From positions 8,175-72,174 of the forward strand of contig DJVI01000009.1 in NCBI GenBank assembly GCA_002441125.1: 64,000 bases of DNA. Reading direction: 5' to 3'. The stretch is from a candidate division WOR-3 bacterium UBA6260 (lineage in GTDB: Bacteria; Hydrothermota; 32-111). The stretch's first letter is position 1, and each line of letters opens with the position of its first letter. The notes beneath the pieces are model-generated. The model did no database searches. It was not told the origin of the DNA and was given only the letters and a program-made list of their open reading frames with translations. Below, piece after piece: positions 5,939 through 18,205 of this stretch. Both the position numbers and the translations under genes were made by a program.

Positions 5939-5976
5939 TCAAAAATGTCACACTGTCAAGCACCGTCCCCAATATT
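5939..5976. repeat. 38-bp direct repeat, left copy (tcaaaaatgtcacactgtcaagcaccgtccccaatatt); overlaps the 3' end of the KAP NTPase gene
   Basis: Identical by inspection to 15946-15983. It encodes the KAP protein's last residues NIGDGA plus the stop codon on the minus strand. Confidence 0.85.
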
Positions 5977-7944
5977 TGAATTTGAAATACCGTTACCAAT
6001 ATTGGAATTATTTACTATTTCCTTAAGTTTATTTAAACTATTTGTAATATCCTCTTTGAGATATTCATCAAAATTTTCTTTTTCCATTTCCATTTTATCA
6101 TTTACTTTAGCTAAAATATTTTGAAAAATATCTTTGACTTTTGCTTTATCATAATTACTAATAACATTAATCAAAATCTCTTCCAATAAAAGATCTCTTA
6201 TACTTAAACGAGATCCTTCTTTTACAAGTCGAAGATTATTTAAATAATGTTCTTTGATTTCATTTTTAAAGTTATCAAAATCTTTATTAAAAAATTCTAA
6301 AATTTCATTTATTGACTTAAATTTTTTTTTATTTATTTCTAAAAGATTTTCTTTTAAACCTAAATATAAATTCAGATTATATATTCTAAATAATCTTTTG
6401 AATAAAATAAATTGAACTACTTTTTTTTCGTTTTTTTTCATACCCTTAATAGTATTTTCAAATATGTCTTTAAAATCCAATTTTTCTTTAAATATTTCTC
6501 TAATAAAATTTATAATCATATTTTCTTGTTCTTCTTCATTATTTTTATAATTTATTTTAAAATAAATTAAAAACAATATAAGTTCCATTACACTTTTAAT
6601 CTCAACAATATTTTTATTAAGTAATAATTCTACTTTTTCAATAAAATTGTTTACTTTAGTTTTTTCGTCCTTATCACTTGACTGACCTAATATCTTATCC
6701 GAAATTTGTTCATTATTCTCTTTAAGGTTAATTAAATTTATATCTAATTGATGGATAAATAAAATCCTTTGGGTCATTAAATGTTCCCATATTAAAGGAT
6801 GCTTAAATTTTAACCATTCAATTAGGATAATATCTAACAAAAAAATATTCTCTGCTATTTCTTTTCTACCTTTTATTATTTGTTTCACATTTTCTGTTAA
6901 CATAATAACATCTCTAAAATCATCAAAATCAAAAATACTCGTTGATGTTAAGATATTGTTTAATAAAGCCAATATCAATTCTTTTTGAGAATCGTCATTA
7001 GATAAATGTTCATCAATTATTTCTATTTTTATTTTTTCTTGAAAAAAATCTCTCAAAATTTCAATAGGATTAACAAGTTCTATTTTATAATCGAATGTTT
7101 TATTTAAATAACCACTTATTAAATATTCCTTTTCAAAAATATTCATTAAAGCATTTCTATCAATAGTTGTTATAAGGTAAAAATTTGGAATCCTGCTAAA
7201 GCAGTTTATAAATTTAAATATCTCCAAAATTGTTTCACTATCTATTAATCTATCTAATTCATCTAATATTAGTATAAATTTTTTAGATTTAATATTTTTC
7301 TTAATATGATTTTTAAAATGGTTTAATCTATTTTCAAAATTTATAAGATCATCAATGTAAAATTTAAAACCACTAACTGTTACATCATAGTTTCTAAATA
7401 TATTTTCCCAATAACAATACCTAAATTTTAATCCTAAAAATTTTATAAGATTGTAATATATCTGCTCAGAAGAATAAAAACTTATTAAATTAAGATAAAC
7501 AATTTCTATTTCTTTATCTTTTTTACTTCCATTACTTTTTTTACAAAATGTTTTTTGAAAATATTTTAATAGAGTTGACTTACCTGTTCCCCATTTCCCT
7601 ACTACAGCAATTGTTGCATTATTAATCTCCACATTTTCAATAATACTCTTTAATTCTTCACAATTCTTTTTGATATTATATGCAGGTTCATCTATATTAC
7701 TCAAATGAGTATTTTTAATTTCATCATCTGAATATTGTACATTATTGAAAAATGTATCTCTCAAATACAAGATAAAAATAGAAATAATCAATAACAGTAA
7801 TGGTAAAATTATATTTAACAAATTTAGAAAATAATTGTAAAAAAGTTTAATTTTGAAAATTAATAACAAAATTAATAGAAAAAAGATTATTAAACCTATT
7901 CTATTTATAAACTTTTCTTTATTTGAATTAAACCACATCGACAA
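5956..7944 (-). CDS. KAP-family P-loop NTPase with N-terminal transmembrane helices
   Basis: 662 aa. Walker A AVVGKWGTGKST and Walker B ILILDELDRL, in the KAP NTPase arrangement. Two strongly hydrophobic N-terminal segments. Very AT- and Lys/Asn-rich. Confidence 0.65.
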   Translation of the reverse strand: MSMWFNSNKEKFINRIGLIIFFLLILLLIFKIKLFYNYFLNLLNIILPLLLLIISIFILYLRDTFFNNVQYSDDEIKNTHLSNIDEPAYNIKKNCEELKSIIENVEINNATIAVVGKWGTGKSTLLKYFQKTFCKKSNGSKKDKEIEIVYLNLISFYSSEQIYYNLIKFLGLKFRYCYWENIFRNYDVTVSGFKFYIDDLINFENRLNHFKNHIKKNIKSKKFILILDELDRLIDSETILEIFKFINCFSRIPNFYLITTIDRNALMNIFEKEYLISGYLNKTFDYKIELVNPIEILRDFFQEKIKIEIIDEHLSNDDSQKELILALLNNILTSTSIFDFDDFRDVIMLTENVKQIIKGRKEIAENIFLLDIILIEWLKFKHPLIWEHLMTQRILFIHQLDINLINLKENNEQISDKILGQSSDKDEKTKVNNFIEKVELLLNKNIVEIKSVMELILFLIYFKINYKNNEEEQENMIINFIREIFKEKLDFKDIFENTIKGMKKNEKKVVQFILFKRLFRIYNLNLYLGLKENLLEINKKKFKSINEILEFFNKDFDNFKNEIKEHYLNNLRLVKEGSRLSIRDLLLEEILINVISNYDKAKVKDIFQNILAKVNDKMEMEKENFDEYLKEDITNSLNKLKEIVNNSNIGNGISNSNIGDGA

Positions 7945-8266: not shown

Positions 8267-8365
8267 CTCATTCCCTTCCACTATTTTTATTTCTTCCTCA
8301 GTCAAACCATATAATTTATAAACCATCTGGTCAATCTGGCGTTCGTATTCTTTGACTTTGGCCTG
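8267..8365 (-). pseudogene. Duplicated ~100-bp fragment: 3' end of the MmeI-family methyltransferase gene plus the ATGA start/stop junction (non-functional remnant)
   Basis: About 90% identical by eye to 9292-9395. Translates on the minus strand to ...QAKVKEYERQIDQMVYKLYGLTEEEIKIVEGNEK*, against GLTDEEIKIVEGRQ* in the intact gene. It retains the overlapping ATG but continues into a 15-codon junk ORF. Confidence 0.7.
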
Positions 8366-8372
8366 GCAAATT

Positions 8373-9296
8373 TTAAAATAATGACAATTCCCCTTGTCCA
8401 GATTTTTCCTCAACATATTTTAAATTTCTATTAGTATAAAACTGGTTCCTATATCTTTTTGGGTCGCCAATATCTGTTTTTTCTTTTGGGAAAAATCTAA
8501 CCATTATTCTCTTATTATAAGAACTATTTTTCGTATTATCAATTAGTTCAATGAGTAATGGCAAATAACAATCAGCAAGTTCTTCTCTATATTTTGATTT
8601 TTTACTCTTTTCAATACCATGAATAATACTTGTTGTTACACCGAGAACACAATCACATAATTGTATTAGGTTGGAACGTCTGTCTACTTTATGGTCTTTT
8701 GGAAGAAAAGTTATTTCTTTACAATTGAAGAATATATCTTCTTGTTCACTTATTTTGTAAATACAGTGCCAAGGGAAATATTTGTGTTGTTTTTGTTGTC
8801 CATCCTCGTGATAAATATTCTCAACAATAATTTTTTTATTCCCAAAAAATGTTTTTATGGCATATAATAATGCTGACCGAAAAAAACGATTGTATTTACT
8901 ATTGAAGTCATTATTCTGGTCAAACTCTTCTTTTGAAAGGTATGAGTTATTTAATCCAAGAATATATGAATAAAATTTCTTTTGACTTTTATCAGGGTTT
9001 AAAATATACTCAAACCATCTTCTACATATATTTTTTTCATCTGCACTTGCAATTTCTGACCAATGCATAATATGGTTGTTTTTCACATAATAAGGAGAAT
9101 TTATATCAAAATTGCCCTTAAATCGTTCCTGAATAATATCATCAAGTAAAGGATTGTCAATATCTTCAACAATCAACCCTATGTAATGCCATTCATTCCC
9201 AGTATATGAACAAAATTTGGATTGGATTTCATCGGCATAAATATTAATTGTAACAGGATTTTCTTTTATTTCATTACCAAATAAATCCTTGCTCAT
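8373..9296 (-). CDS. hypothetical protein (possibly DUF3800-like), translationally coupled to the methyltransferase
   Basis: 307 aa. Its start ATG overlaps the methyltransferase stop TGA (ATGA). An N-terminal INIYADE motif is loosely similar to the DUF3800 'iyiDES' signature. No other recognisable motif. Confidence 0.5.
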   Translation of the reverse strand: MSKDLFGNEIKENPVTINIYADEIQSKFCSYTGNEWHYIGLIVEDIDNPLLDDIIQERFKGNFDINSPYYVKNNHIMHWSEIASADEKNICRRWFEYILNPDKSQKKFYSYILGLNNSYLSKEEFDQNNDFNSKYNRFFRSALLYAIKTFFGNKKIIVENIYHEDGQQKQHKYFPWHCIYKISEQEDIFFNCKEITFLPKDHKVDRRSNLIQLCDCVLGVTTSIIHGIEKSKKSKYREELADCYLPLLIELIDNTKNSSYNKRIMVRFFPKEKTDIGDPKRYRNQFYTNRNLKYVEEKSGQGELSLF

Positions 9297-12200
9297 TGTC
9301 TCCCTTCCACTATTTTTATTTCCTCATCAGTCAAACCATATAATTTATAAACCATCTGGTCAATCTGGCGTTCGTATTCTTTAACTTTGGCCTGCTTTTC
9401 TTTGTTCTGCAAATAATCATCGTCTTTTGTTATTTCAAGAATTTTATCTACGATGTCAATAAAGGGTTGTTGGTCAATTTTTTCTAGTTCAACTATTGGT
9501 AAAGAATATAAAGCATAAATCCTAAACTGCGCAAGGGTTCGGTTTTTCTGACCGTATAAACCATTTTGATATAAAAAAGACAATAGTTTAGATGAAAACA
9601 AAGCTAATAGTAGTTTTATATTTATATAATTCATTTTGGATTTTACAACATATAAATTTTGATGAGCAATTGCAAAATCATATTTCACGGGTGGGACACA
9701 TAATATTGTATCTCCTGTTTTTCTAATAAAAATTCTTTCACCATTATGTAAATTATAATCATATTTTTGGCATTGTTTTTTTGGTAGATAAACTATTTTT
9801 GCGTAACAGTATCTGTTTAATAGATCATCTCTGATTATAGGTAAAACATTTTTTGATTTTTTGTAAAAAATTTTAGAAAAATTATTATCTAATGAATGTT
9901 CACCTTCCGATATTTTACAATATTCTTTCATTTTTTTGAGGACGTTTAAATAAATCTTTTTTGCTAAATGATTTTTATAAAAACAAATATTCCCATTAAT
10001 ATATTCAACCTTGACTAATTCCTCATTTATAATGTCTCTAAGTATATATTTTCTTATTAAGTCACGTTCTATCATTTTTATATCCGAATAATTTACATAT
10101 TTATTTTCAGACTTTAATTTTTGTGAAATAAATATTGCCGTGGCAACAATTGGTTCTTCAAAAATATTGAAACCTAAATCTACTATAATAATATTATGGA
10201 ATTTATTAATAATTATATCCCGTATATCAGCATATTTAGATAGTGTAATATATGTGTTTGGAGTAATATATGTTATTATTCCTTTTTCCTTTATAATTTG
10301 AGTCCCAAGTTGTATAAACCATTTATATAAATCCTTACATCCTTTTGAGGATTCTGGAAATCTTTTTGTTATATCCGCCAATTCTTTTTCTAATAATTCT
10401 GCTTCCTTTCTTTTTCCTTTTCTTATTAATTCTTTTACAGGACTACCTTTCCCACTTAGAAATTTATACGGAGGATTTGCAATGACAATATCAAACCCAT
10501 TTTTTTCGCGAAATACTTCAGAAAAATAAATATGAAAGTCAAATTCTATATTTCCAATAGTATGGTCTATTGTTCTTAAAAATTTTAGTTGTTCGATAAA
10601 TAATTTTTGAATCTCATCTCTAATTTTAACTTTTTCCATTAAGGATGTAGTAGAAAATAAAAGTTTTTTCTTCTCTTCTATTCTTTCGTTAATATTATTA
10701 TTTGGTAGAATATTTTCTGGTAAACCTAAAAGTGAATTTCCGCATACAAGTTTGTAATCCAGGTTTGGCAAAGGTTTTATTTTTGTAACATCATCTTCGT
10801 CAACTATTAGAGAAAGCCAGAACCTGAGTTTAGCAATATCTATTGCTGATGAATCAATATCTACGCCATAAATACAGTTTTCAATGCAATGACGTTTGAA
10901 ATTATATGATGTTCGTCCCTCTTGGTTAGATAAAAAATTTGTTAAAATATTTCTTGCCTTTACAATTTCCAGCATCATTCCAACAGGAAAGGCGCCTGAA
11001 CCAACGGCAGGATCGCAAACACGGATGTTTTCTAATTTTTCATCTATAAGTTTAGCATTATTCTTTATACTTTCAGGCATCTTAATCTTTTTATATTTCC
11101 CATTATATTCCGGGTTTTCTTCTATCCTTGCAATGACAAGTTTATCGTGTTCAATTGTTATATCTCCGTATTTAATAAGTATTTCAATATCTTCTTTTTT
11201 CACCTTGCCTTCACATTCTGTTGCTAAATAATTTATCAAACTCTCCTGGCACATATAATGAACAATCTCACGAGGAGTATAATATGCCCCCTGACCTTTT
11301 CGCAAGTTCTCTTCAATCAGGTTTTCAAAAACTTTACCAAGTAATTCAGGATCAAGAGCGACCTCTTTTTCAAGTGGCTCATCTTCTTGCACAGTAAAAT
11401 TATACCTATCAAAAACATCAAGAATGCCAGTGCCTATATCTCCTTCTTTCGTTTTTTCATTATTAGAGAACAATTCATTAGGAATAATTAAATCTTTTTT
11501 TTGCCAGTCGTAGTTGTTTACTGGTTCAAAAAGACCACCATTTAAAAATGGGATTTTACAATCAAAATAGTTTGAATATGTTGAATCTGCCTGATTTGTT
11601 CTTGGATTATTTAATGTGTTATAAAACAATACTTCAAGATAATCATTAAAGAAATTTTTCTTTTCTTCACTGCACTTTTTAAATAATGAACGCAGAAAAT
11701 TCCTGTCCCCTTCTCCCCAGTTTTTATCTTTTGGAACACCAAGCCAACCCTTCTTTTGTAAAAAATAGAGGAAGACTATTTGACCTAAAAGTTTTTTGGA
11801 AAAGTCTGATGTTTTTATCTTTTTATTTTCAAATTCTTCTTTAACATTATTATCATTTTTAACAATTGTTTCAATGGTATTATTTAATTTCTGATATAGG
11901 CTAAGGTATTGACTAAGAAATTCTTTTGTAATTTTTTCAACACTAAACGCTTTTTCAAGTTGTTCTAATGTGGGATTATTTACATCATCTTGTAAAATAG
12001 GGAGTAATTGTTGTTGAGCAGTATGATTGGGCTCATTTTTGCCTACCAGAAAAGAATATCTACGAGCAGGTGTAAACTCTTCTTCTCCTTTTGGCTTGCC
12101 TGATTTTGTTTGTGTTAATTTGTATTCCTTTTTAACCAGAGAAAAACGCCAATCGTCAAGTTCTGGTGAAACAAAAGCAACAACAGCAGCATCTTTTTCT

Positions 12201-12517
12201 TTAACAGAACCATATTTACCAGCAAGATAACCTGCAATAAAATTTCGTTGCATTGTCCTGGCACGTTCAATTGAAGTTTCTTTTTTTAAGTAAACTATTA
12301 AAATATCAATTCTTTTGTCTTCTGATACATATTTGCCAACTCGTTCGTATTTGTTAATATATGGCTCATATGTATCTGGTATGTATTGTCCATGATATTC
12401 AAACGGTTCCAAAGAAATTTTATTAAATAAGTTCTTTACAAAATAGACAAATCTTTCCTTTTCAAAAGAGTTTTCAAATGTTTCTCTTATCAATTTTATA
12501 GCAGATTTTTTATCCAT
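9293..12517 (-). CDS. MmeI/PglX-family gamma-class N6-adenine DNA methyltransferase (Type IIG/IIL-like), with N-terminal MmeI-like domain and C-terminal target-recognition region
   Basis: 1074 aa. Motif X GAYYTPREIV, motif I DPAVGSGAFPVG, motif IV VIANPPYKF. Stretches resemble MmeI by recall (RNFIAGY, LFYNTLNNP...IPFLNGGLFEP). C-terminal ...LYGLTDEEIKIVEG helix. GAAGG RBS 8 nt upstream, inside the helicase 3' end. Confidence 0.8.
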   Translation of the reverse strand: MDKKSAIKLIRETFENSFEKERFVYFVKNLFNKISLEPFEYHGQYIPDTYEPYINKYERVGKYVSEDKRIDILIVYLKKETSIERARTMQRNFIAGYLAGKYGSVKEKDAAVVAFVSPELDDWRFSLVKKEYKLTQTKSGKPKGEEEFTPARRYSFLVGKNEPNHTAQQQLLPILQDDVNNPTLEQLEKAFSVEKITKEFLSQYLSLYQKLNNTIETIVKNDNNVKEEFENKKIKTSDFSKKLLGQIVFLYFLQKKGWLGVPKDKNWGEGDRNFLRSLFKKCSEEKKNFFNDYLEVLFYNTLNNPRTNQADSTYSNYFDCKIPFLNGGLFEPVNNYDWQKKDLIIPNELFSNNEKTKEGDIGTGILDVFDRYNFTVQEDEPLEKEVALDPELLGKVFENLIEENLRKGQGAYYTPREIVHYMCQESLINYLATECEGKVKKEDIEILIKYGDITIEHDKLVIARIEENPEYNGKYKKIKMPESIKNNAKLIDEKLENIRVCDPAVGSGAFPVGMMLEIVKARNILTNFLSNQEGRTSYNFKRHCIENCIYGVDIDSSAIDIAKLRFWLSLIVDEDDVTKIKPLPNLDYKLVCGNSLLGLPENILPNNNINERIEEKKKLLFSTTSLMEKVKIRDEIQKLFIEQLKFLRTIDHTIGNIEFDFHIYFSEVFREKNGFDIVIANPPYKFLSGKGSPVKELIRKGKRKEAELLEKELADITKRFPESSKGCKDLYKWFIQLGTQIIKEKGIITYITPNTYITLSKYADIRDIIINKFHNIIIVDLGFNIFEEPIVATAIFISQKLKSENKYVNYSDIKMIERDLIRKYILRDIINEELVKVEYINGNICFYKNHLAKKIYLNVLKKMKEYCKISEGEHSLDNNFSKIFYKKSKNVLPIIRDDLLNRYCYAKIVYLPKKQCQKYDYNLHNGERIFIRKTGDTILCVPPVKYDFAIAHQNLYVVKSKMNYINIKLLLALFSSKLLSFLYQNGLYGQKNRTLAQFRIYALYSLPIVELEKIDQQPFIDIVDKILEITKDDDYLQNKEKQAKVKEYERQIDQMVYKLYGLTDEEIKIVEGRQ

Positions 12518-12520
12518 AAA

Positions 12521-15500
12521 TTAGCCTTCTTTAATAAGGTATTCAGAAAGTATAACTTCTCTCGGACCAGATGTCTGCCCTGGTAACTCAGAGCTTGGTG
12601 TTTTAAAAAATGTTTCAGGAATATTCTTCTTTATTATTCCATATATTTTTAAGTAATTGTTTTCTTTTCCAATTTTTTTTATTATATTTTTAACTGTTTG
12701 TTTAGGTATAACTCCTTCTTCAAGTAGAATTAGAACTTTGTTTAAATACTCTTCATCATCTTCAGTAAAACCTTTCATTTTTGATATTGCCTTTATTAAA
12801 ATCTTTAATCTTACATCACTACTTTTACCACCTTTGGTTTTAACTTCTTGAATATCTTCAACTAATGATGACTTAAAAGCATCTTTGTTCTTGTCTAAGT
12901 AGTCATAATATTTCTGACCTATTTTTTCTCGTTTAGTATCTTTGTTTGATTTCAATATTTCTGCTGTTTGAAAGAAATCCAATTCTTTTGTTGATTCTGC
13001 GTTACTAATAAACATTTTTCTTAATTTACCTTTTCTAAAAAAAGTTATTACAGATTCTTTATCAACAGAATGAATTTTAGCACTTCGTGCTTTTTTAGGT
13101 AAGCGTTTTATTTTTTCAAATAAGTCAGGATTATTGTCCCTGATATTTCTGAGTTCAGAAAGGTATTTAAGTTCGGACTCTTCTGATTCCTCACCTTCAA
13201 TAACTTCTTTAGAATTTAACCTTTTGAAAAGTTCAAATGAATTGACCTCTTCCCCTTCAGTTAAATAAGATGCATCTTCACCAAGAATATTGTGGAAAGC
13301 CTGCAATTTTCCAATAGCTGCTTCTTCTAATTTTATTTCTTCATTTGATTGGACTGTCGGAAAGAAATTATAAATAAAAATTTTATCAAACTGTGTATCT
13401 ACTCTGTTTATACGACCTACTCTTTGAATTATACGAACAGGATTCCAAGGAATATCATAATTTATAATAACATTGGAACGATGAAGATTAACTCCTTCAG
13501 AAAGAATATCTGTGGTAATTAAAATTTTTATATCGTCTTTTGGCTTACTGCTTTTTGGATCAAAATTTTCAATTATTTTTTCCTTTATAGGAGCACCTGA
13601 TTTGCTGGAAAATGATATAACAGCGTCTTTATACATACTCTTTAAATTCTTTTCAAGATATTCCGCTGTTTCCATTGATTCGGTAAAAACAATTATCTTA
13701 TTTTCTTTCAATATTTTATCTGTTGATAGTTTATGTATAAACTCATTGATTTTAGGGTCTGTTGTTATATCTTCCCAAAGCGTTTTTATTTCTTTTAAAA
13801 TTTTTAAGTCATTGTTCAGGTCTTCAATAAATTCTGGTCTAAATTCATTTATTTTATATTTTCTAACTTTTTCTTCTTCAATCAATTTCATTATTTCATC
13901 AATATTGTCATTTTCTAAAAGGTCAAATATTTTATTGGTATATTTTTTACTGATGTAAATAGTTCCTTTATCGAACATATTGATAAATTGCTCATAAGAA
14001 TATATAAATCTATCAAGTGTATTTTTAAACGCAAAAAAACTGCTTTCAAGCCTTTTGACAAGCAACACCTTCATAAATACTTTTAAATTTTTCTGTCCAA
14101 TTTCCTCCTCTTGGATAGGATTTTCTAAATATAAGAGCGGTGTATATCTGGAATACTTAAATAGTTTTATTTTATTTATTGTTTCATTAAAAATAAAATC
14201 TGTCTTTTCATCAAATTTATAATATAGTCTTTTAGGTGTCTTTACATCGGGGAACTTTAACCCTTTTTTTGTCAGGTCTTTACTGAAATACTTTTTTATA
14301 TCTTCTCTTGTTCTGCGAACTATAAGATATTTCAGGACATCTTCCCTTATCTTTTTTGAATTATCTTTCATGATTTTTATATATTTATCGAATTCTTTTA
14401 ATCGGTCTATTCCTTTTAGTCGTTTTTGCAATGTATTAAAATATTTTTCCAGATTTTTTATATTAGGAATTGTGCTATTTCTTCCTTTTTGAAATAGTTT
14501 TATCTGACTTAATATATCATTTGGAGTATTGTTCTGCGGTGTAGCTGAAATCAAAATTACCCTTTTCCCCCAGCATATCTGTTTTAATTTTTCATAAGTT
14601 TGCGTTGACTCATTACGAAACCTGTGTGCTTCATCTATAAAAACATTTTTGTATTCTCTTTTTTTTGTTATTTCAATTATATCATCTAACTTCCCTAACG
14701 ACTCTACAATAACTGGAACATGAAAATCCTGAAATGTGCTTTCCCAATAATCTTTAAGGATTGGTGGACAGATAACTAAATTACGACCATCTAACTGTTG
14801 TGCCAGCATTGCAGAAATATATGTCTTACCAAGACCTACTACATCTGACAGGAATACACCGCCATATTCTTCTAATTTATTTTTAGCATCACTTACTGCT
14901 TCCCGTTGATATTCAAAATTCATAAAACCGTGCGGAACATCAGGTGTGTTTATTTCCTCTTGATCAATATTTATTGTTTCCTTAAAATATTCATACAAAT
15001 ATTTTAAGTAGAGTTCGTAAGGAGTTATACTCTCATTAACCCATGTTCTGGTCTTGATTGTTTCAATATATTCCTGCGAGATATCCACTGAATTCTCCCA
15101 CAATTTGTTAAATGCAGTGATAGCAAATTCATAATCAGACGGGTTTTTTAGTTCAACATTAAATTCTAAGTTTTCTTTAAGACCAGCCTTAGTAAAGTTG
15201 CTCGAACCTGTAATAACTCTTCCTATATCTCTATCATTCTCTTTAAAAGTCATGATATAAAGTTTTGAATGTATATTTTCAGTAGGATATGCTTTAATCT
15301 CTATTTTCCCCTTTTGTACCCATTCAACGAATTTTGACACACCTTCTTCAACATTATGATTATCATCCGAATACTCCATTTCTTTTATAATGGAGCCATT
15401 AATTTTTTCTTTAACTTCAGAATAAGAATAGTAGAGGTTTAGTTGTTCATTTAATCTTGCTTTTTCAATATTTTCCATAGTTTCCTTATCAGTACATATT

Positions 15501-15679
15501 CCAACTAAGATCCTTATTTTTTCAGTATTCTCTAAAGATTTATAAAGTTCATAAAAACCGCTCATATAAAAATACCCAACCAAGACATCAAAATAACGAG
15601 TATCTTTTATAAGTAATTTGAATCTTTCAAGAAGGCTTTTATCTTTTTCGTTGGTAATAAATGTTAAATCTGAATCCAT
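12521..15679 (-). CDS. PLD-family (HKD) nuclease domain fused to SNF2/DEAH-box superfamily-2 helicase
   Basis: 1052 aa. N-terminal PLD motif IHSKLYI...GSSNFT. Helicase motif I GLGKTYIS, motif II VFIDEAHRFRN, motif III ILISATPQN, motifs V/VI ...TDILSEGVNL...QRVGRINR. Only 3 nt separate its stop from the methyltransferase start. Confidence 0.8.
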   Translation of the reverse strand: MDSDLTFITNEKDKSLLERFKLLIKDTRYFDVLVGYFYMSGFYELYKSLENTEKIRILVGICTDKETMENIEKARLNEQLNLYYSYSEVKEKINGSIIKEMEYSDDNHNVEEGVSKFVEWVQKGKIEIKAYPTENIHSKLYIMTFKENDRDIGRVITGSSNFTKAGLKENLEFNVELKNPSDYEFAITAFNKLWENSVDISQEYIETIKTRTWVNESITPYELYLKYLYEYFKETINIDQEEINTPDVPHGFMNFEYQREAVSDAKNKLEEYGGVFLSDVVGLGKTYISAMLAQQLDGRNLVICPPILKDYWESTFQDFHVPVIVESLGKLDDIIEITKKREYKNVFIDEAHRFRNESTQTYEKLKQICWGKRVILISATPQNNTPNDILSQIKLFQKGRNSTIPNIKNLEKYFNTLQKRLKGIDRLKEFDKYIKIMKDNSKKIREDVLKYLIVRRTREDIKKYFSKDLTKKGLKFPDVKTPKRLYYKFDEKTDFIFNETINKIKLFKYSRYTPLLYLENPIQEEEIGQKNLKVFMKVLLVKRLESSFFAFKNTLDRFIYSYEQFINMFDKGTIYISKKYTNKIFDLLENDNIDEIMKLIEEEKVRKYKINEFRPEFIEDLNNDLKILKEIKTLWEDITTDPKINEFIHKLSTDKILKENKIIVFTESMETAEYLEKNLKSMYKDAVISFSSKSGAPIKEKIIENFDPKSSKPKDDIKILITTDILSEGVNLHRSNVIINYDIPWNPVRIIQRVGRINRVDTQFDKIFIYNFFPTVQSNEEIKLEEAAIGKLQAFHNILGEDASYLTEGEEVNSFELFKRLNSKEVIEGEESEESELKYLSELRNIRDNNPDLFEKIKRLPKKARSAKIHSVDKESVITFFRKGKLRKMFISNAESTKELDFFQTAEILKSNKDTKREKIGQKYYDYLDKNKDAFKSSLVEDIQEVKTKGGKSSDVRLKILIKAISKMKGFTEDDEEYLNKVLILLEEGVIPKQTVKNIIKKIGKENNYLKIYGIIKKNIPETFFKTPSSELPGQTSGPREVILSEYLIKEG

Positions 15680-15744: not shown

Positions 15745-15773
15745 ATTATAAATCACAATTATTTTATTGTCAA
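15745..15773 (-). promoter_or_regulatory. Candidate sigma70-type promoter for the helicase-methyltransferase operon
   Basis: Minus-strand TTGACA (15768-15773), 17-nt spacer, TATAAT (15745-15750), about 65 nt upstream of the helicase ATG at 15679. Confidence 0.4.
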
Positions 15774-15945: not shown

Positions 15946-15983
15946 TCAAAAATGTCACACTGTCAAGCACCGTCCCCAATATT
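15946..15983. repeat. 38-bp direct repeat, right copy (identical to 5939-5976)
   Basis: Perfect match by inspection. Lies in the intergenic region upstream of the island operon. Confidence 0.85.
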
Positions 15984-16104: not shown

Positions 16105-16908
16105 ATGTATGAAATTTTAAAAATTTACGCCTTTATTGTAAGAAAATTTATAAATAAAAAAAAGAACATCAAAAAGATGCATCCCCATTTAAAAAAGGGA
16201 TATGAAGAGTATTTGAAGTTAAAAGATAAAGAAATAGTTGAAATAGAAAATAGAAAATTTAAAATAATAAAAATAAAGACAAAAATTTTTCAGGGTGGAG
16301 AGGATCTTATTGGTTACATATATGAAAACTTAAAAGAGAGTTTAAAAGATAATGATATTTTAACTGTTGCTGAATCTATAATAGGTGTAACACAGAATAG
16401 AGCATATAGAGTTGATGAGATAAAACCATCAAAATGGGCTTACTTTTTATACCCTTGGGTATCAAATGTTGATTATGGAACTGGACTTGGTATGGCTGAA
16501 ACTATGGAATGTGCTATCAGAGAGGTAGGTTTGAAAAGGATTTTAAAAGCTACCTTTTTTGGTTTTTTGGATAGAATACGAAAAAAAAGCGGTTCATTCT
16601 ATAGGATAGCAGGGAAAGAGGTTAAGAGCATTGATTTTAAGAAGAACCATCCTATACCTTTCAAAGGTTCCAACAACTATATAGTCCTTTCACCAAAAGA
16701 ACCAGAGATTTTTGCAAAAAAAGTTTACAAAAAATTTTCAAAAAATATTTTTGTCTCTGTTGTAGATGCCAACAATGTTTCAGTAGATGTACTTGCACTC
16801 TATCCTGAAGATAAAAAAATAGAAAAAATCATATATAATGTTATGAAAGGAAATCCAGCTGGACAGGACGATGAAAAAACACCTATCATTATTATCAGAG
16901 AAATTTAA
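16105..16908 (+). CDS. CofE-like (F420-0:gamma-glutamyl ligase family) protein
   Basis: 267 aa. Pattern FQGGEDLIGYI...DILTVAESIIGVTQNRAYRV resembles the CofE-family core. The start may be the internal ATG near 16177. Confidence 0.45.
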   Translation: MYEILKIYAFIVRKFINKKKNIKKMHPHLKKGYEEYLKLKDKEIVEIENRKFKIIKIKTKIFQGGEDLIGYIYENLKESLKDNDILTVAESIIGVTQNRAYRVDEIKPSKWAYFLYPWVSNVDYGTGLGMAETMECAIREVGLKRILKATFFGFLDRIRKKSGSFYRIAGKEVKSIDFKKNHPIPFKGSNNYIVLSPKEPEIFAKKVYKKFSKNIFVSVVDANNVSVDVLALYPEDKKIEKIIYNVMKGNPAGQDDEKTPIIIIREI

Positions 16909-18205
16909 ATCGAACTTTTTTAAGTCCATATTTTCAACTTCAATACTGATAGGTATATCGAGATTTACAGGTTTTTTAAGAGAGGTTGTCTACTCAGCAT
17001 ATCTCGGGACATCAAGGATAATGGATGGTTTTTTAGTTGCTTTTCTGATACCCAACTTTTTCAGAAGGATATTGGGAGAAAGGGCAGCTGAATCAGTTTT
17101 TTTACCAATGTATATAAGGGAGAGAGAAAAAAGTGAAAAAGATGCTAACGATTATATGTCAATTTTTTTCACAACAGTATCAATTATTTTGATTTTAGGA
17201 ATAATAGTTCTTTACATATTCTCTCCTCTAATACTAAAAATCCTTGCTCCGGGTTTTGACAAAGAAACTTTTAACATATCTTTGAAGATAACCTACATAA
17301 TTCTTCCATACATGTTTTTCATAGGAATATACAGTTTTTTAGGTTCTCTTCTTGAATCTTATAAAAGATTTTCTCTATATAACATCTCTCCTCTTTTATT
17401 CAACATTGTGATGGTTGTGGCTATTCCACTCTTTTATAAAAAAAATCCAGTTCTAACAATATCCTTCTCAGTTCTTGTCGGAGTTATAGCTCAAACAGCT
17501 ATACTTTTTTTAGGTTTAAAAAATTTACCTGTTAAATTCAGGTTCAAAATTTCTTTCAAAGATGAAAGGATAAAAAGAACATTTTATCTTCTTCTCCCAA
17601 TAATACTTGCAAGTTTTATAGAAAAAAGTGCTATATATATTGACAGGATTTTTGGGTCAATACTTGGTACAGGTGCTATATCCTCACTGCATTTTTCCTT
17701 TCTTTTAACCGACCTCCCTTTTGCAGTTTTTTCGATAGCTATTTCAAAAGTCATCCATCCTTACATTTCAGAGAAAGAAGTTTATTCCTCAAAAAATAAT
17801 TTCAAAAAGTATATAAAAAGAGGTATTATTTTAAATGTGATGATACTTTTACCAATAACTTTATTTTTTATAATATTTGCAAAAAGTATAATAAGGATAG
17901 TTTACTTAAGAGGTGAATTCAACATAAATTCTTTGAATATGACTTACCTTCCATTCATATATTATACAGTGGGACTGATACCAATGGGGTTGATACAAGT
18001 TTTTGCAAAAGGTTTTTATTCTCTTCTAAACACAAAAACTCCCCTTTATGTTTCAGGTTTTGCTATGTTAATTAATGTATTTCTTAATATAATTCTTATG
18101 CCAAAATTTAACATCGCTGGAATAGCGCTTGCGACATCCCTATCATACTGGATACACGCGATATACCTTTACTTTAAATTAAAAAAGAATATGGACAGAT
18201 TATGA
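16871..18205 (+). CDS. murJ: lipid II flippase MurJ (MviN family)
   Basis: 444 aa polytopic membrane protein. N-terminal RFTGFLREVVYSAYLGTS...DGFLVAFLIPNFFRRILGE signature of MurJ. Confidence 0.75.
   Translation: MKKHLSLLSEKFKSNFFKSIFSTSILIGISRFTGFLREVVYSAYLGTSRIMDGFLVAFLIPNFFRRILGERAAESVFLPMYIREREKSEKDANDYMSIFFTTVSIILILGIIVLYIFSPLILKILAPGFDKETFNISLKITYIILPYMFFIGIYSFLGSLLESYKRFSLYNISPLLFNIVMVVAIPLFYKKNPVLTISFSVLVGVIAQTAILFLGLKNLPVKFRFKISFKDERIKRTFYLLLPIILASFIEKSAIYIDRIFGSILGTGAISSLHFSFLLTDLPFAVFSIAISKVIHPYISEKEVYSSKNNFKKYIKRGIILNVMILLPITLFFIIFAKSIIRIVYLRGEFNINSLNMTYLPFIYYTVGLIPMGLIQVFAKGFYSLLNTKTPLYVSGFAMLINVFLNIILMPKFNIAGIALATSLSYWIHAIYLYFKLKKNMDRL

Follow-up and report, generated by a model that had tools for sequence, protein, structure and literature searches.

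A conserved nuclease–helicase and methyltransferase gene pair from candidate division WOR-3 is probably a two-subunit restriction–modification enzyme

Within a 64,000-nucleotide stretch of contig DJVI01000009.1 (hereafter the window), which derives from a metagenome-assembled genome (MAG) of candidate division WOR-3, two adjacent genes encode a PLD(HKD)-Snf2 protein (HEL, 1052 amino acids (aa)) and a gamma-class N6-adenine methyltransferase with a target-recognition domain, or TRD (MT, 1074 aa; Table 1). In our favoured explanation, to which we assign a probability of roughly two in three, HEL and MT are the two subunits of one ATP-dependent restriction–modification (R-M) enzyme, built as a split Type ISP- or Type III-like system. 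At NCBI, HEL is named 'helicase-related protein' and MT 'Eco57I restriction-modification methylase domain-containing protein'. The HEL stop codon and the MT start codon are separated by 3 nucleotides (nt) (AAA GAA GGC TAA ttt ATG), with a ribosome-binding site for MT inside the 3' end of HEL; an earlier note on this DNA, made from the letters alone, had described just this junction, and both open reading frames (ORFs) fell exactly where it had drawn them. The promoter-like site ahead of HEL (TTGACA-17-TATAAT) agrees with the consensus at 12/12 positions and was the best site in the 10.7-kb region scanned. One strong promoter-like site before HEL, together with an MT ribosome-binding site inside HEL, would make a layout that fits an R-M system.

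Conservation of the gene pair

A HEL-seeded scan of 185,579 species-representative genomes (one genome per species) returned at least 599 loci, 80 of which were kept. In 65 of these 80, across bacterial phyla, an MT homologue that included the N-terminus was present on the same contig, and in most of the loci lacking one the contig stops within a few hundred bases of HEL. Among linked loci, MT almost always lies directly downstream of HEL on the same strand (upstream in 5), mostly at a distance of −4 to +17 nt. The reciprocal scan, seeded with the N-terminal 200 aa of MT and run against IMG/VR, yielded 21 loci, 19 of them with a full-length HEL directly upstream of MT, for 101 related loci in all. 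When the neighbouring ORFs of the 80 genome loci were clustered, HEL was found in 75 and MT in 56, with the next largest cluster present in only 7; no third gene was conserved across these loci, and no fused HEL-MT protein was found among them. HEL and MT form a conserved two-gene module, with obligate genetic linkage in both directions. The earlier note would have been refuted had the pair failed to recur outside this genome, and the pair proved to be linked in nearly every locus, whichever gene served as the starting point.

Variant loci were also seen. Two of the IMG/VR loci (L083 and L095) have only a C-terminal HEL remnant upstream of MT, and L095 has two tandem MT copies; these may be decayed or rearranged systems. 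A distant, Bacteroidota-heavy branch (L033, L036, L044, L048, L059, L066 and L071; 33-37% identity to HEL) has recurring extra genes, namely an SMC_N/AAA_15 ABC-type ATPase of ~626 aa downstream of MT and, upstream, a DUF1016/YhcG PDDEXK nuclease of ~376 aa with a small HTH protein. On Parabacteroides distasonis plasmid NZ_OY725763.1, the HEL-MT pair sits among other defence-like genes; Paraclostridium bifermentans and Capnocytophaga granulosa ATCC 51502 are further cultivable carriers. Other loci hold more distant PLD-Snf2 proteins, examples being one in Thermus oshimai, within a different methyltransferase locus, and one on B. cereus plasmid NZ_AP022916.1 (L105, 28632-42365), where a protein again named 'helicase-related protein' lies inside a DISARM-like locus comprising DrmA, DUF1998, PLD-Snf2, DUF4391, a site-specific methyltransferase and a DEAD/DEAH helicase. 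The B. cereus protein looks like a DrmC-DrmD fusion variant.

HEL combines a PLD-like nuclease domain with an Snf2 motor

The motor of HEL was recognised by Pfam (SNF2-rel_dom at aa 323-471; Helicase_C at aa 655-760, E 2.3e-18) and by its motifs, which include a Walker A sequence (GLGKT, G282-T286), DEAH (349-352) and motif VI (QRVGRINR, Q752-R759), and Foldseek with an AF2 model of HEL matched the Snf2 core to CSB, Mot1, ZorD and RapA. Residue conservation was assessed in 42 pairs, the one in the window and those of 41 loci. All 42 have Walker A, DEAH and motif VI unchanged, and equally invariant are the PLD residues H137, K139, G158, S159, S160, N161, E172 and N174, and the invariance of the HKD residues argues for a working phosphodiesterase. 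The PLD-family motif HxK(x)4D...GSxN occurs in HEL in one copy per chain. A lone HKD motif amounts to half an active site in PLD nucleases, Nuc, BfiI and SauUSI being examples, so cleavage should need two HEL molecules, and HEL would presumably dimerise.

Full-length relatives of HEL, at 58-81% identity, occur in many phyla and make up a large family, in which the C-terminal region is poorly conserved (mean pairwise identity 0.24) and diverges in step with the N-terminal domain of MT (r = 0.90). Among PADLOC models, 'C3a139, HKD+Snf2' fitted HEL best (3e-42), followed by DrmD, and the score against NCBIfam 'phospholipD_antiphage' was far under the cut-off. PDB sequence searches with aa 1-250 (the PLD region) and aa 790-1052 (the C-terminus) returned zero matches at E<=10.

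MT is a gamma-class methyltransferase with a family-specific N-terminal domain

Pfam identified Eco57I (E 1.1e-27), N6_Mtase and TaqI_C in MT; motif I precedes NPPY, which is the gamma-class order, and the C-terminal part, the TRD, is variable. Residues D502, G506-G508 and N681-P683 are invariant in 42/42. When a profile of the MT family was compared with PDB sequences, CamA (3e-36), BseCI and TaqI ranked first, followed by BrxX/PglX (7e-15), with MmeI at E 0.33. These sequence comparisons indicate that MT is an Eco57I/TaqI/CamA-like gamma methyltransferase. The domains named in the earlier note (an HKD PLD domain plus Snf2 core, and a gamma N6-adenine methyltransferase with TRD) are borne out by Pfam and the motifs, and its label 'MmeI/PglX-family' proved imprecise: PglX ranks behind CamA, BseCI and TaqI, and Pfam MmeI_Mtase reached 24.4 bits on MT against a cut-off of 27, with no other MmeI domain. 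Membership of the MmeI family (Type IIL) was rejected on those Pfam scores.

The N-terminal domain of MT, some 190 aa long and overlooked in the earlier note, is placed where Type IIG and IIL enzymes carry their nuclease, and it bears on an alternative that we consider unlikely, namely that MT is a self-contained Type IIG enzyme cutting with that domain and HEL a separate or accessory protein (a SauUSI-like stand-alone nuclease–helicase, or a restriction booster). MT matches the PADLOC profile PDLC03596 (REase_MTase_IIG) over its full length (E 2.1e-251, 835 bits), and a solitary Type IIG enzyme, Cj0031, restricts phage alone (PMC4889913) and is a homologue of such methyltransferases according to Milman et al. 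(PMC9881135). The PADLOC profile, however, is REBASE-derived and its Type IIG name reflects classification by similarity, not by an assayed nuclease; the other PADLOC Type IIG profiles align to MT only from ~aa 190-240 onward. Across the 42 MT sequences, no D...(D/E)xK triad of the PD-(D/E)xK type, nor any other acidic/Lys set, is conserved in the N-terminal 190 aa (D71 and E58 vary), where the only family-wide conserved residues are F115, R124, S126, R153 and T166, and Foldseek of this domain against the PDB gave zero matches at E<=0.001. The near-obligate linkage of HEL and MT in both directions, with genes that usually overlap or abut, also speaks against self-sufficiency.

So does the distribution of the N-terminal domain, which is limited to helicase-linked proteins and co-varies with HEL. 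It was always found at residues 1-200 of one architecture (894 clusters at E<=1e-3), and no helicase fusion was apparent by length among its top 150 relatives. At 50% identity the family comprises about 900 clusters. Correlation with the divergence of HEL is highest for the N-terminal domain (r = 0.91) and lower for the helical linker (0.59), the methyltransferase core (0.51) and the TRD (0.18), the last of these having a mean pairwise identity of 0.19; many MT homologues align over 71-76% of the query only. The N-terminal domain travels with the helicase and probably docks it. We read MT as having no nuclease of its own, with the PLD domain of HEL as the likely nuclease of the system.

Proposed mechanism and alternatives

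As two subunits of one R-M enzyme, HEL and MT would divide the work as follows. The C-terminal TRD of MT would recognise a short, probably asymmetric DNA sequence, and MT would methylate adenine at that site, thereby marking host DNA, with HEL supplying a Snf2-type double-strand DNA translocase and a PLD-family nuclease. MT would use its N-terminal domain to recruit HEL, probably by contact with the variable C-terminal region of the latter, and an unmethylated site would license ATP-driven translocation. Two HEL molecules, paired either as a standing dimer or through the collision of two complexes, would then join their single HKD motifs into one PLD active site and cut the DNA, and specificity would diversify through exchange of the TRD segment. 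In this architecture, the Type ISP order would be cut at the motor/methyltransferase junction, with PLD replacing Mrr and Snf2 replacing a Type I-like motor. Complex formation, trigger and cleavage mode are what we infer here; judged by their conserved residues, the PLD, motor and methyltransferase activities all look functional. The earlier note had two polypeptides sharing out the nuclease, motor, methyltransferase and specificity functions, and this suggestion is upheld.

Several observations weigh against this explanation. Since no part of MT lies closer to HEL on the DNA than its N-terminus, recombination breakpoints downstream of it would give the same pattern, and the co-variation at r = 0.91 could be explained by mere adjacency. 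The full-length AF2 model of HEL is poor (mean pLDDT 63.8, and <50 over most of the PLD domain), so the PLD assignment comes from sequence alone and Foldseek confirms the Snf2 core only. Two loci (L055 and L058) have no MT in the ~2-4 kb of contig that follows HEL, and remoter PLD-Snf2 proteins are found in other settings, DISARM-like loci among them. Finally, a literature search found no complex, methylation motif, ATPase activity or cleavage reported for any family member.

A second alternative, that the pair is the methyltransferase–helicase core of a larger BREX-, DISARM- or Hma-BR-like system, with the KAP-type ATPase and 307-aa protein encoded beside it as partners here, strikes us as improbable. 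The gene order, Snf2 helicase followed by N6 methyltransferase, mirrors that of DISARM, where DrmD reportedly comes before DrmMI, and PADLOC returned matches to DrmD (1.7e-36), DrmMI (1.4e-24), PglX (2.5e-23) and HmaA (9.6e-22). The four genes travel together in the WOR-3 lineage in one repeat-flanked island, the Bacteroidota branch adds its ABC-type ATPase and DUF1016 nuclease, the B. cereus plasmids carry a PLD-Snf2 protein in a DrmA/DUF1998 locus, and Type-2 BR systems likewise combine an HKD-Snf2 helicase with an N6 methyltransferase and an ATPase (PMC12839542). However, the 80 genome loci share no third gene; none of the 101 related loci has a homologue of the 307-aa or the 662-aa protein; and NCBIfam scores lie far under the cut-offs (DISARM_DrmD, 141 bits vs 610; BREX_1_MTaseX, the PglX model, 76.5 bits vs 500). 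No PglZ, BrxC, DrmA, DrmB, DUF499 or DUF3780 was found in the four island genes or the conserved neighbours, confirming what the earlier note had said of the core genes of BREX (PglZ, BrxC) and DISARM (DrmA, DrmB).

Very improbable, finally, is a module that does not cut DNA at all, whether it regulates epigenetically in a phase-variable manner or, as in BREX, blocks foreign DNA without degrading it, the Snf2 motor stripping proteins from the unmethylated molecules: Snf2 motors do commonly remodel protein–DNA complexes, and BREX does block phage without obvious cleavage, but the HKD catalytic residues are invariant in 42/42 and the module resides in a mobile, strain-variable island.

If HEL and MT act as one enzyme, then many 'Type IIG' genes would be modification/specificity subunits of a different, ATP-dependent class, the neighbouring 'helicase-related proteins' would be restriction subunits, and calls in REBASE, PADLOC and DefenseFinder would need correcting. 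The pair would represent a third build of translocating R-M enzyme (PLD + Snf2), plausibly also a minimal relative of both DISARM class 1 and the BR/Hma effectors, and a simple two-gene system for how a sequence reader licenses a bacterial Snf2 motor; new specificities could come from those members whose TRDs can be swapped. The module is widespread and probably mis-annotated. More tentatively, and at somewhat less than even odds, we propose that it is the founding example of an abundant two-subunit ATP-dependent R-M class, mis-filed as Type IIG enzymes plus orphan helicases, in which a non-catalytic MT N-terminal domain would license a Snf2 motor and single-HKD PLDs would cut when two motors meet; the pair would then be the minimal module behind DISARM class 1 (DrmD-DrmMI + DrmC) and HKD-helicase BR/Hma systems.

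The module is not wholly new to databases or the literature, and 'undescribed', as the earlier note had it, is too strong a word: besides the 835-bit PADLOC match of MT and the PADLOC 'HKD+Snf2' model, there are prior mentions. Aravind and colleagues noted bacterial R-M systems in which an HKD domain is fused with a SWI2/SNF2 ATPase (PMC3417536), and comparative genomics has placed HKD-Snf2 fusions in R-M contexts (PMC3417536; PMC2292703). Among the targets of programmed inversion, Milman et al. (2023) included 'Type II R-M CDS with an adjacent PLD (cd09178) + SNF CDS', and they tabulated PLD-SNF adjacency to a Cj0031-like Type II methyltransferase (PMC9881135). For the HEL-MT module, our literature search found passing mentions only, and no name, mechanistic proposal or experiment.

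Specificity exchange and genomic context

Between the promoter and MT residue ~597, sibling WOR-3 contigs share 99% identity with the window, and from position 9463 the identity is again 98%; the window segment between these (10727-9464, the TRD segment) is unrelated in those contigs. This is a recent TRD swap between sibling strains. Two 94-nt copies of the MT 3' tail (Table 1) bracket the 307-aa gene, and such repeats are probably scars of TRD-cassette replacement. One sibling contig (L111) has matching 94-nt copies at 9903-9996 and 10932-11025, besides the end of its own MT' gene. Elsewhere in the family, inverted partial MT copies adjoin a resolvase-type serine invertase (L032, opposite strand, plus 16415-17026; L039, 17303-17908; L078; L052), an arrangement that points to phase-variable TRD shuffling in some members and fits the programmed inversions that Milman et al. 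(2023) described for such loci. TRD shuffling and invertase-linked inverted fragments also resemble phasevarions (PMC9881135), which is a point in favour of the non-cutting, regulatory alternative.

HEL and MT share a ~10-kb island with two other genes, and a perfect 38-nt direct repeat, R, brackets all four (0 matches expected by chance). GC content is 0.20-0.30 in the island region, compared with 0.33-0.37 in the left flank, and on either side lie housekeeping genes whose order is kept in a strain without the island. Between identical flanks, one sibling strain carries a single repeat R and another cassette (Guanylate_cyc+AAA_16 alongside two unknown genes), and other sibling strains have both cassettes in tandem. 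The repeat-flanked slot is a strain-variable hotspot, a context that fits defence. There is no integrase and no tRNA within the island; repeat R looks like an att-type or cassette-boundary site, and a tRNA-linked integration site was ruled out, the window being without tRNA. The sibling cassette (L107, 5697-9946; L106, 5704-9936; L111, 1-3045; flanks 99% identical) encodes the Guanylate_cyc+AAA_16 protein (579 or 896 aa) and a protein of 490-499 aa (plus one of 316 aa in L107), with no Pfam matches recorded for the latter proteins; it may be another defence cassette.

The two remaining genes are lineage-specific cargo of the island. For the 307-aa protein, UniRef names a 90%-identity cluster member 'DUF3800 domain-containing'; the protein itself had no match in Pfam, PADLOC, NCBIfam or PHROGs, with nothing credible in Pfam at E<=1. 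The 662-aa NTPase matched Pfam AAA_22 (2.2e-10) and KAP_NTPase (6.7e-06) and, weakly, PADLOC PifA (2.2e-10), with no PHROGs match; its gene lies in the lowest-GC stretch of the window (~20%), and the N-terminal segment of the protein is hydrophobic and its tail a low-complexity NIGNG stretch. Neither protein having a homologue in the 101 related loci, a conserved four-gene system was ruled out, and the four-gene operon mentioned in the earlier note is thus no conserved system.

Table 1 Features of the HEL-MT locus and its island (window positions)
Feature	Position	Strand	Basis or remark
HEL	12521..15679	(-)	Predicted restriction/translocase subunit
HEL PLD-like nuclease domain, aa 46-194	15098..15544	(-)	Pfam PLDc_2, E 1.8e-10
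HEL single HKD motif, H137-S-K139 ... G158-S-S-N161-F-T	15197-15271	(-)	Sequence reading
HEL Snf2 ATPase core, aa 255-760	13400..14917	(-)	Pfam SNF2-rel_dom + Helicase_C, motifs, fold matches
HEL C-terminal region, aa 801-1052	12524..13279	(-)	Proposed MT contact; no Pfam or PDB sequence match
MT	9293..12517	(-)	Predicted modification/specificity subunit
MT N-terminal domain, aa 1-190, family-specific	11948..12517	(-)	Candidate helicase-coupling or DNA-binding domain
MT helical linker, aa 191-435, conserved	11213..11947	(-)	Alignment; other PADLOC Type IIG profiles start at ~aa 190-240
MT catalytic core, aa 436-700	10418..11212	(-)	Pfam Eco57I + N6_Mtase
MT motif I, DPAVGSGAF, aa 502-510	10988-11014	(-)	
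MT motif IV, NPPY, aa 681-684	10466-10477	(-)	
MT exchangeable specificity segment including TRD, ~aa 598 to ~1017	9464..10727	(-)	Sibling-strain comparison
MT ribosome-binding site, GAAGG	12525..12529	(-)	Within HEL 3' end, 7 nt before MT ATG
Promoter-like site, TTGACA-17-TATAAT	15745..15773	(-)	66 nt upstream of HEL ATG; predicted from consensus match
307-aa accessory gene	8373..9296	(-)	4-nt overlap with MT stop; not a core component
662-aa AAA_22/KAP-type P-loop NTPase gene	5956..7944	(-)	Lineage-specific island cargo
94-nt copy of MT 3' tail	8272..8365	.	97% identical; other copy 9301-9394
38-nt direct repeat R, left copy	5939..5976	.	Perfect; overlaps last codons of 662-aa ORF
38-nt direct repeat R, right copy	15946..15983	.	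Perfect; 10,007 nt start to start

Comparison with known systems

By its PADLOC match, MT belongs to a recognised Type IIG family, and with the Type IIG/IIL enzymes (Eco57I, BpuSI, MmeI, DrdV and Cj0031) it shares a helical linker, a gamma methyltransferase and a swappable TRD; unlike them, it has no discernible catalytic nuclease in its own chain and has an obligate Snf2-PLD partner. Type III systems (Mod + Res, for example EcoP15I) also comprise two genes, one for a methyltransferase and specificity subunit and one for an SF2 ATPase and nuclease subunit. In Type III enzymes, however, the PD-(D/E)xK nuclease is C-terminal in Res, whose helicase is Rad25-like; Mod is beta-class, and mod precedes res, whereas HEL has an N-terminal PLD domain and a Snf2 motor, MT is gamma-class and the helicase gene comes first. 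SauUSI and CglI/NgoAVII likewise restrict with a PLD-family nuclease coupled to an SF2 ATPase. Of these, SauUSI is of Type IV, depends on modification and has no methyltransferase, and CglI/NgoAVII have PLD and ATPase in separate R and N proteins and a C5 methyltransferase; the PLD region of HEL has no PDB sequence match.

In DISARM class 1, too, the gene for a large N6-adenine methyltransferase directly follows that for a Snf2 helicase, with a PLD nuclease in addition, and HEL resembles DrmC fused to DrmD, but the similarity of MT to DrmMI covers the methyltransferase core only. DISARM was rejected on the sub-threshold NCBIfam score for DrmD and the lack of DrmA or DrmB (DUF1998) in the island or among conserved neighbours; BREX was rejected on the corresponding methyltransferase score and the lack, by Pfam and PADLOC, of PglZ and BrxC/PglY in the four island genes. 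In Type-2 BR/Hma systems, an N-terminal HKD endonuclease fused to a Swi2/Snf2 helicase, found with an N6 methyltransferase, is the predicted effector (Rakesh & Krishnan 2026; PMC12839542, which also cites SauUSI as an HKD restriction factor), and HEL has the same N-terminal HKD–Swi2/Snf2 fusion. The defining component of that class is a DUF499 AAA+ ATPase, and 98% of its systems also carry DUF3780 (PMC12839542). Here PADLOC HmaA aligns to HEL at aa 583-761 only (the Helicase_C region), and this class was rejected as well: neither DUF499 nor DUF3780 is present, the 662-aa ATPase being AAA_22/KAP_NTPase and the 307-aa protein having no Pfam match.

Joined end to end, HEL and MT would reproduce the order of the Type ISP enzymes LlaGI and LlaBIII, that is, nuclease, SF2 motor, gamma N6-adenine methyltransferase and C-terminal TRD. 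The differences are that Type ISP enzymes are single chains and HEL and MT are two polypeptides, divided by a stop codon and a 3-nt gap; that the HEL nuclease is PLD/HKD, in contrast to the Mrr-like PD-QxK nuclease of Type ISP, and its motor is Snf2-family; and that MT has an extra, family-specific N-terminal domain. No LlaBIII chain appeared among the PDB sequence matches of the MT profile. Type ISP enzymes have asymmetric target sites, and their cleavage comes about through ATP-driven translocation and collision (PMC3874165); by analogy, the HEL-MT pair may also use asymmetric sites and cut where translocating complexes collide.

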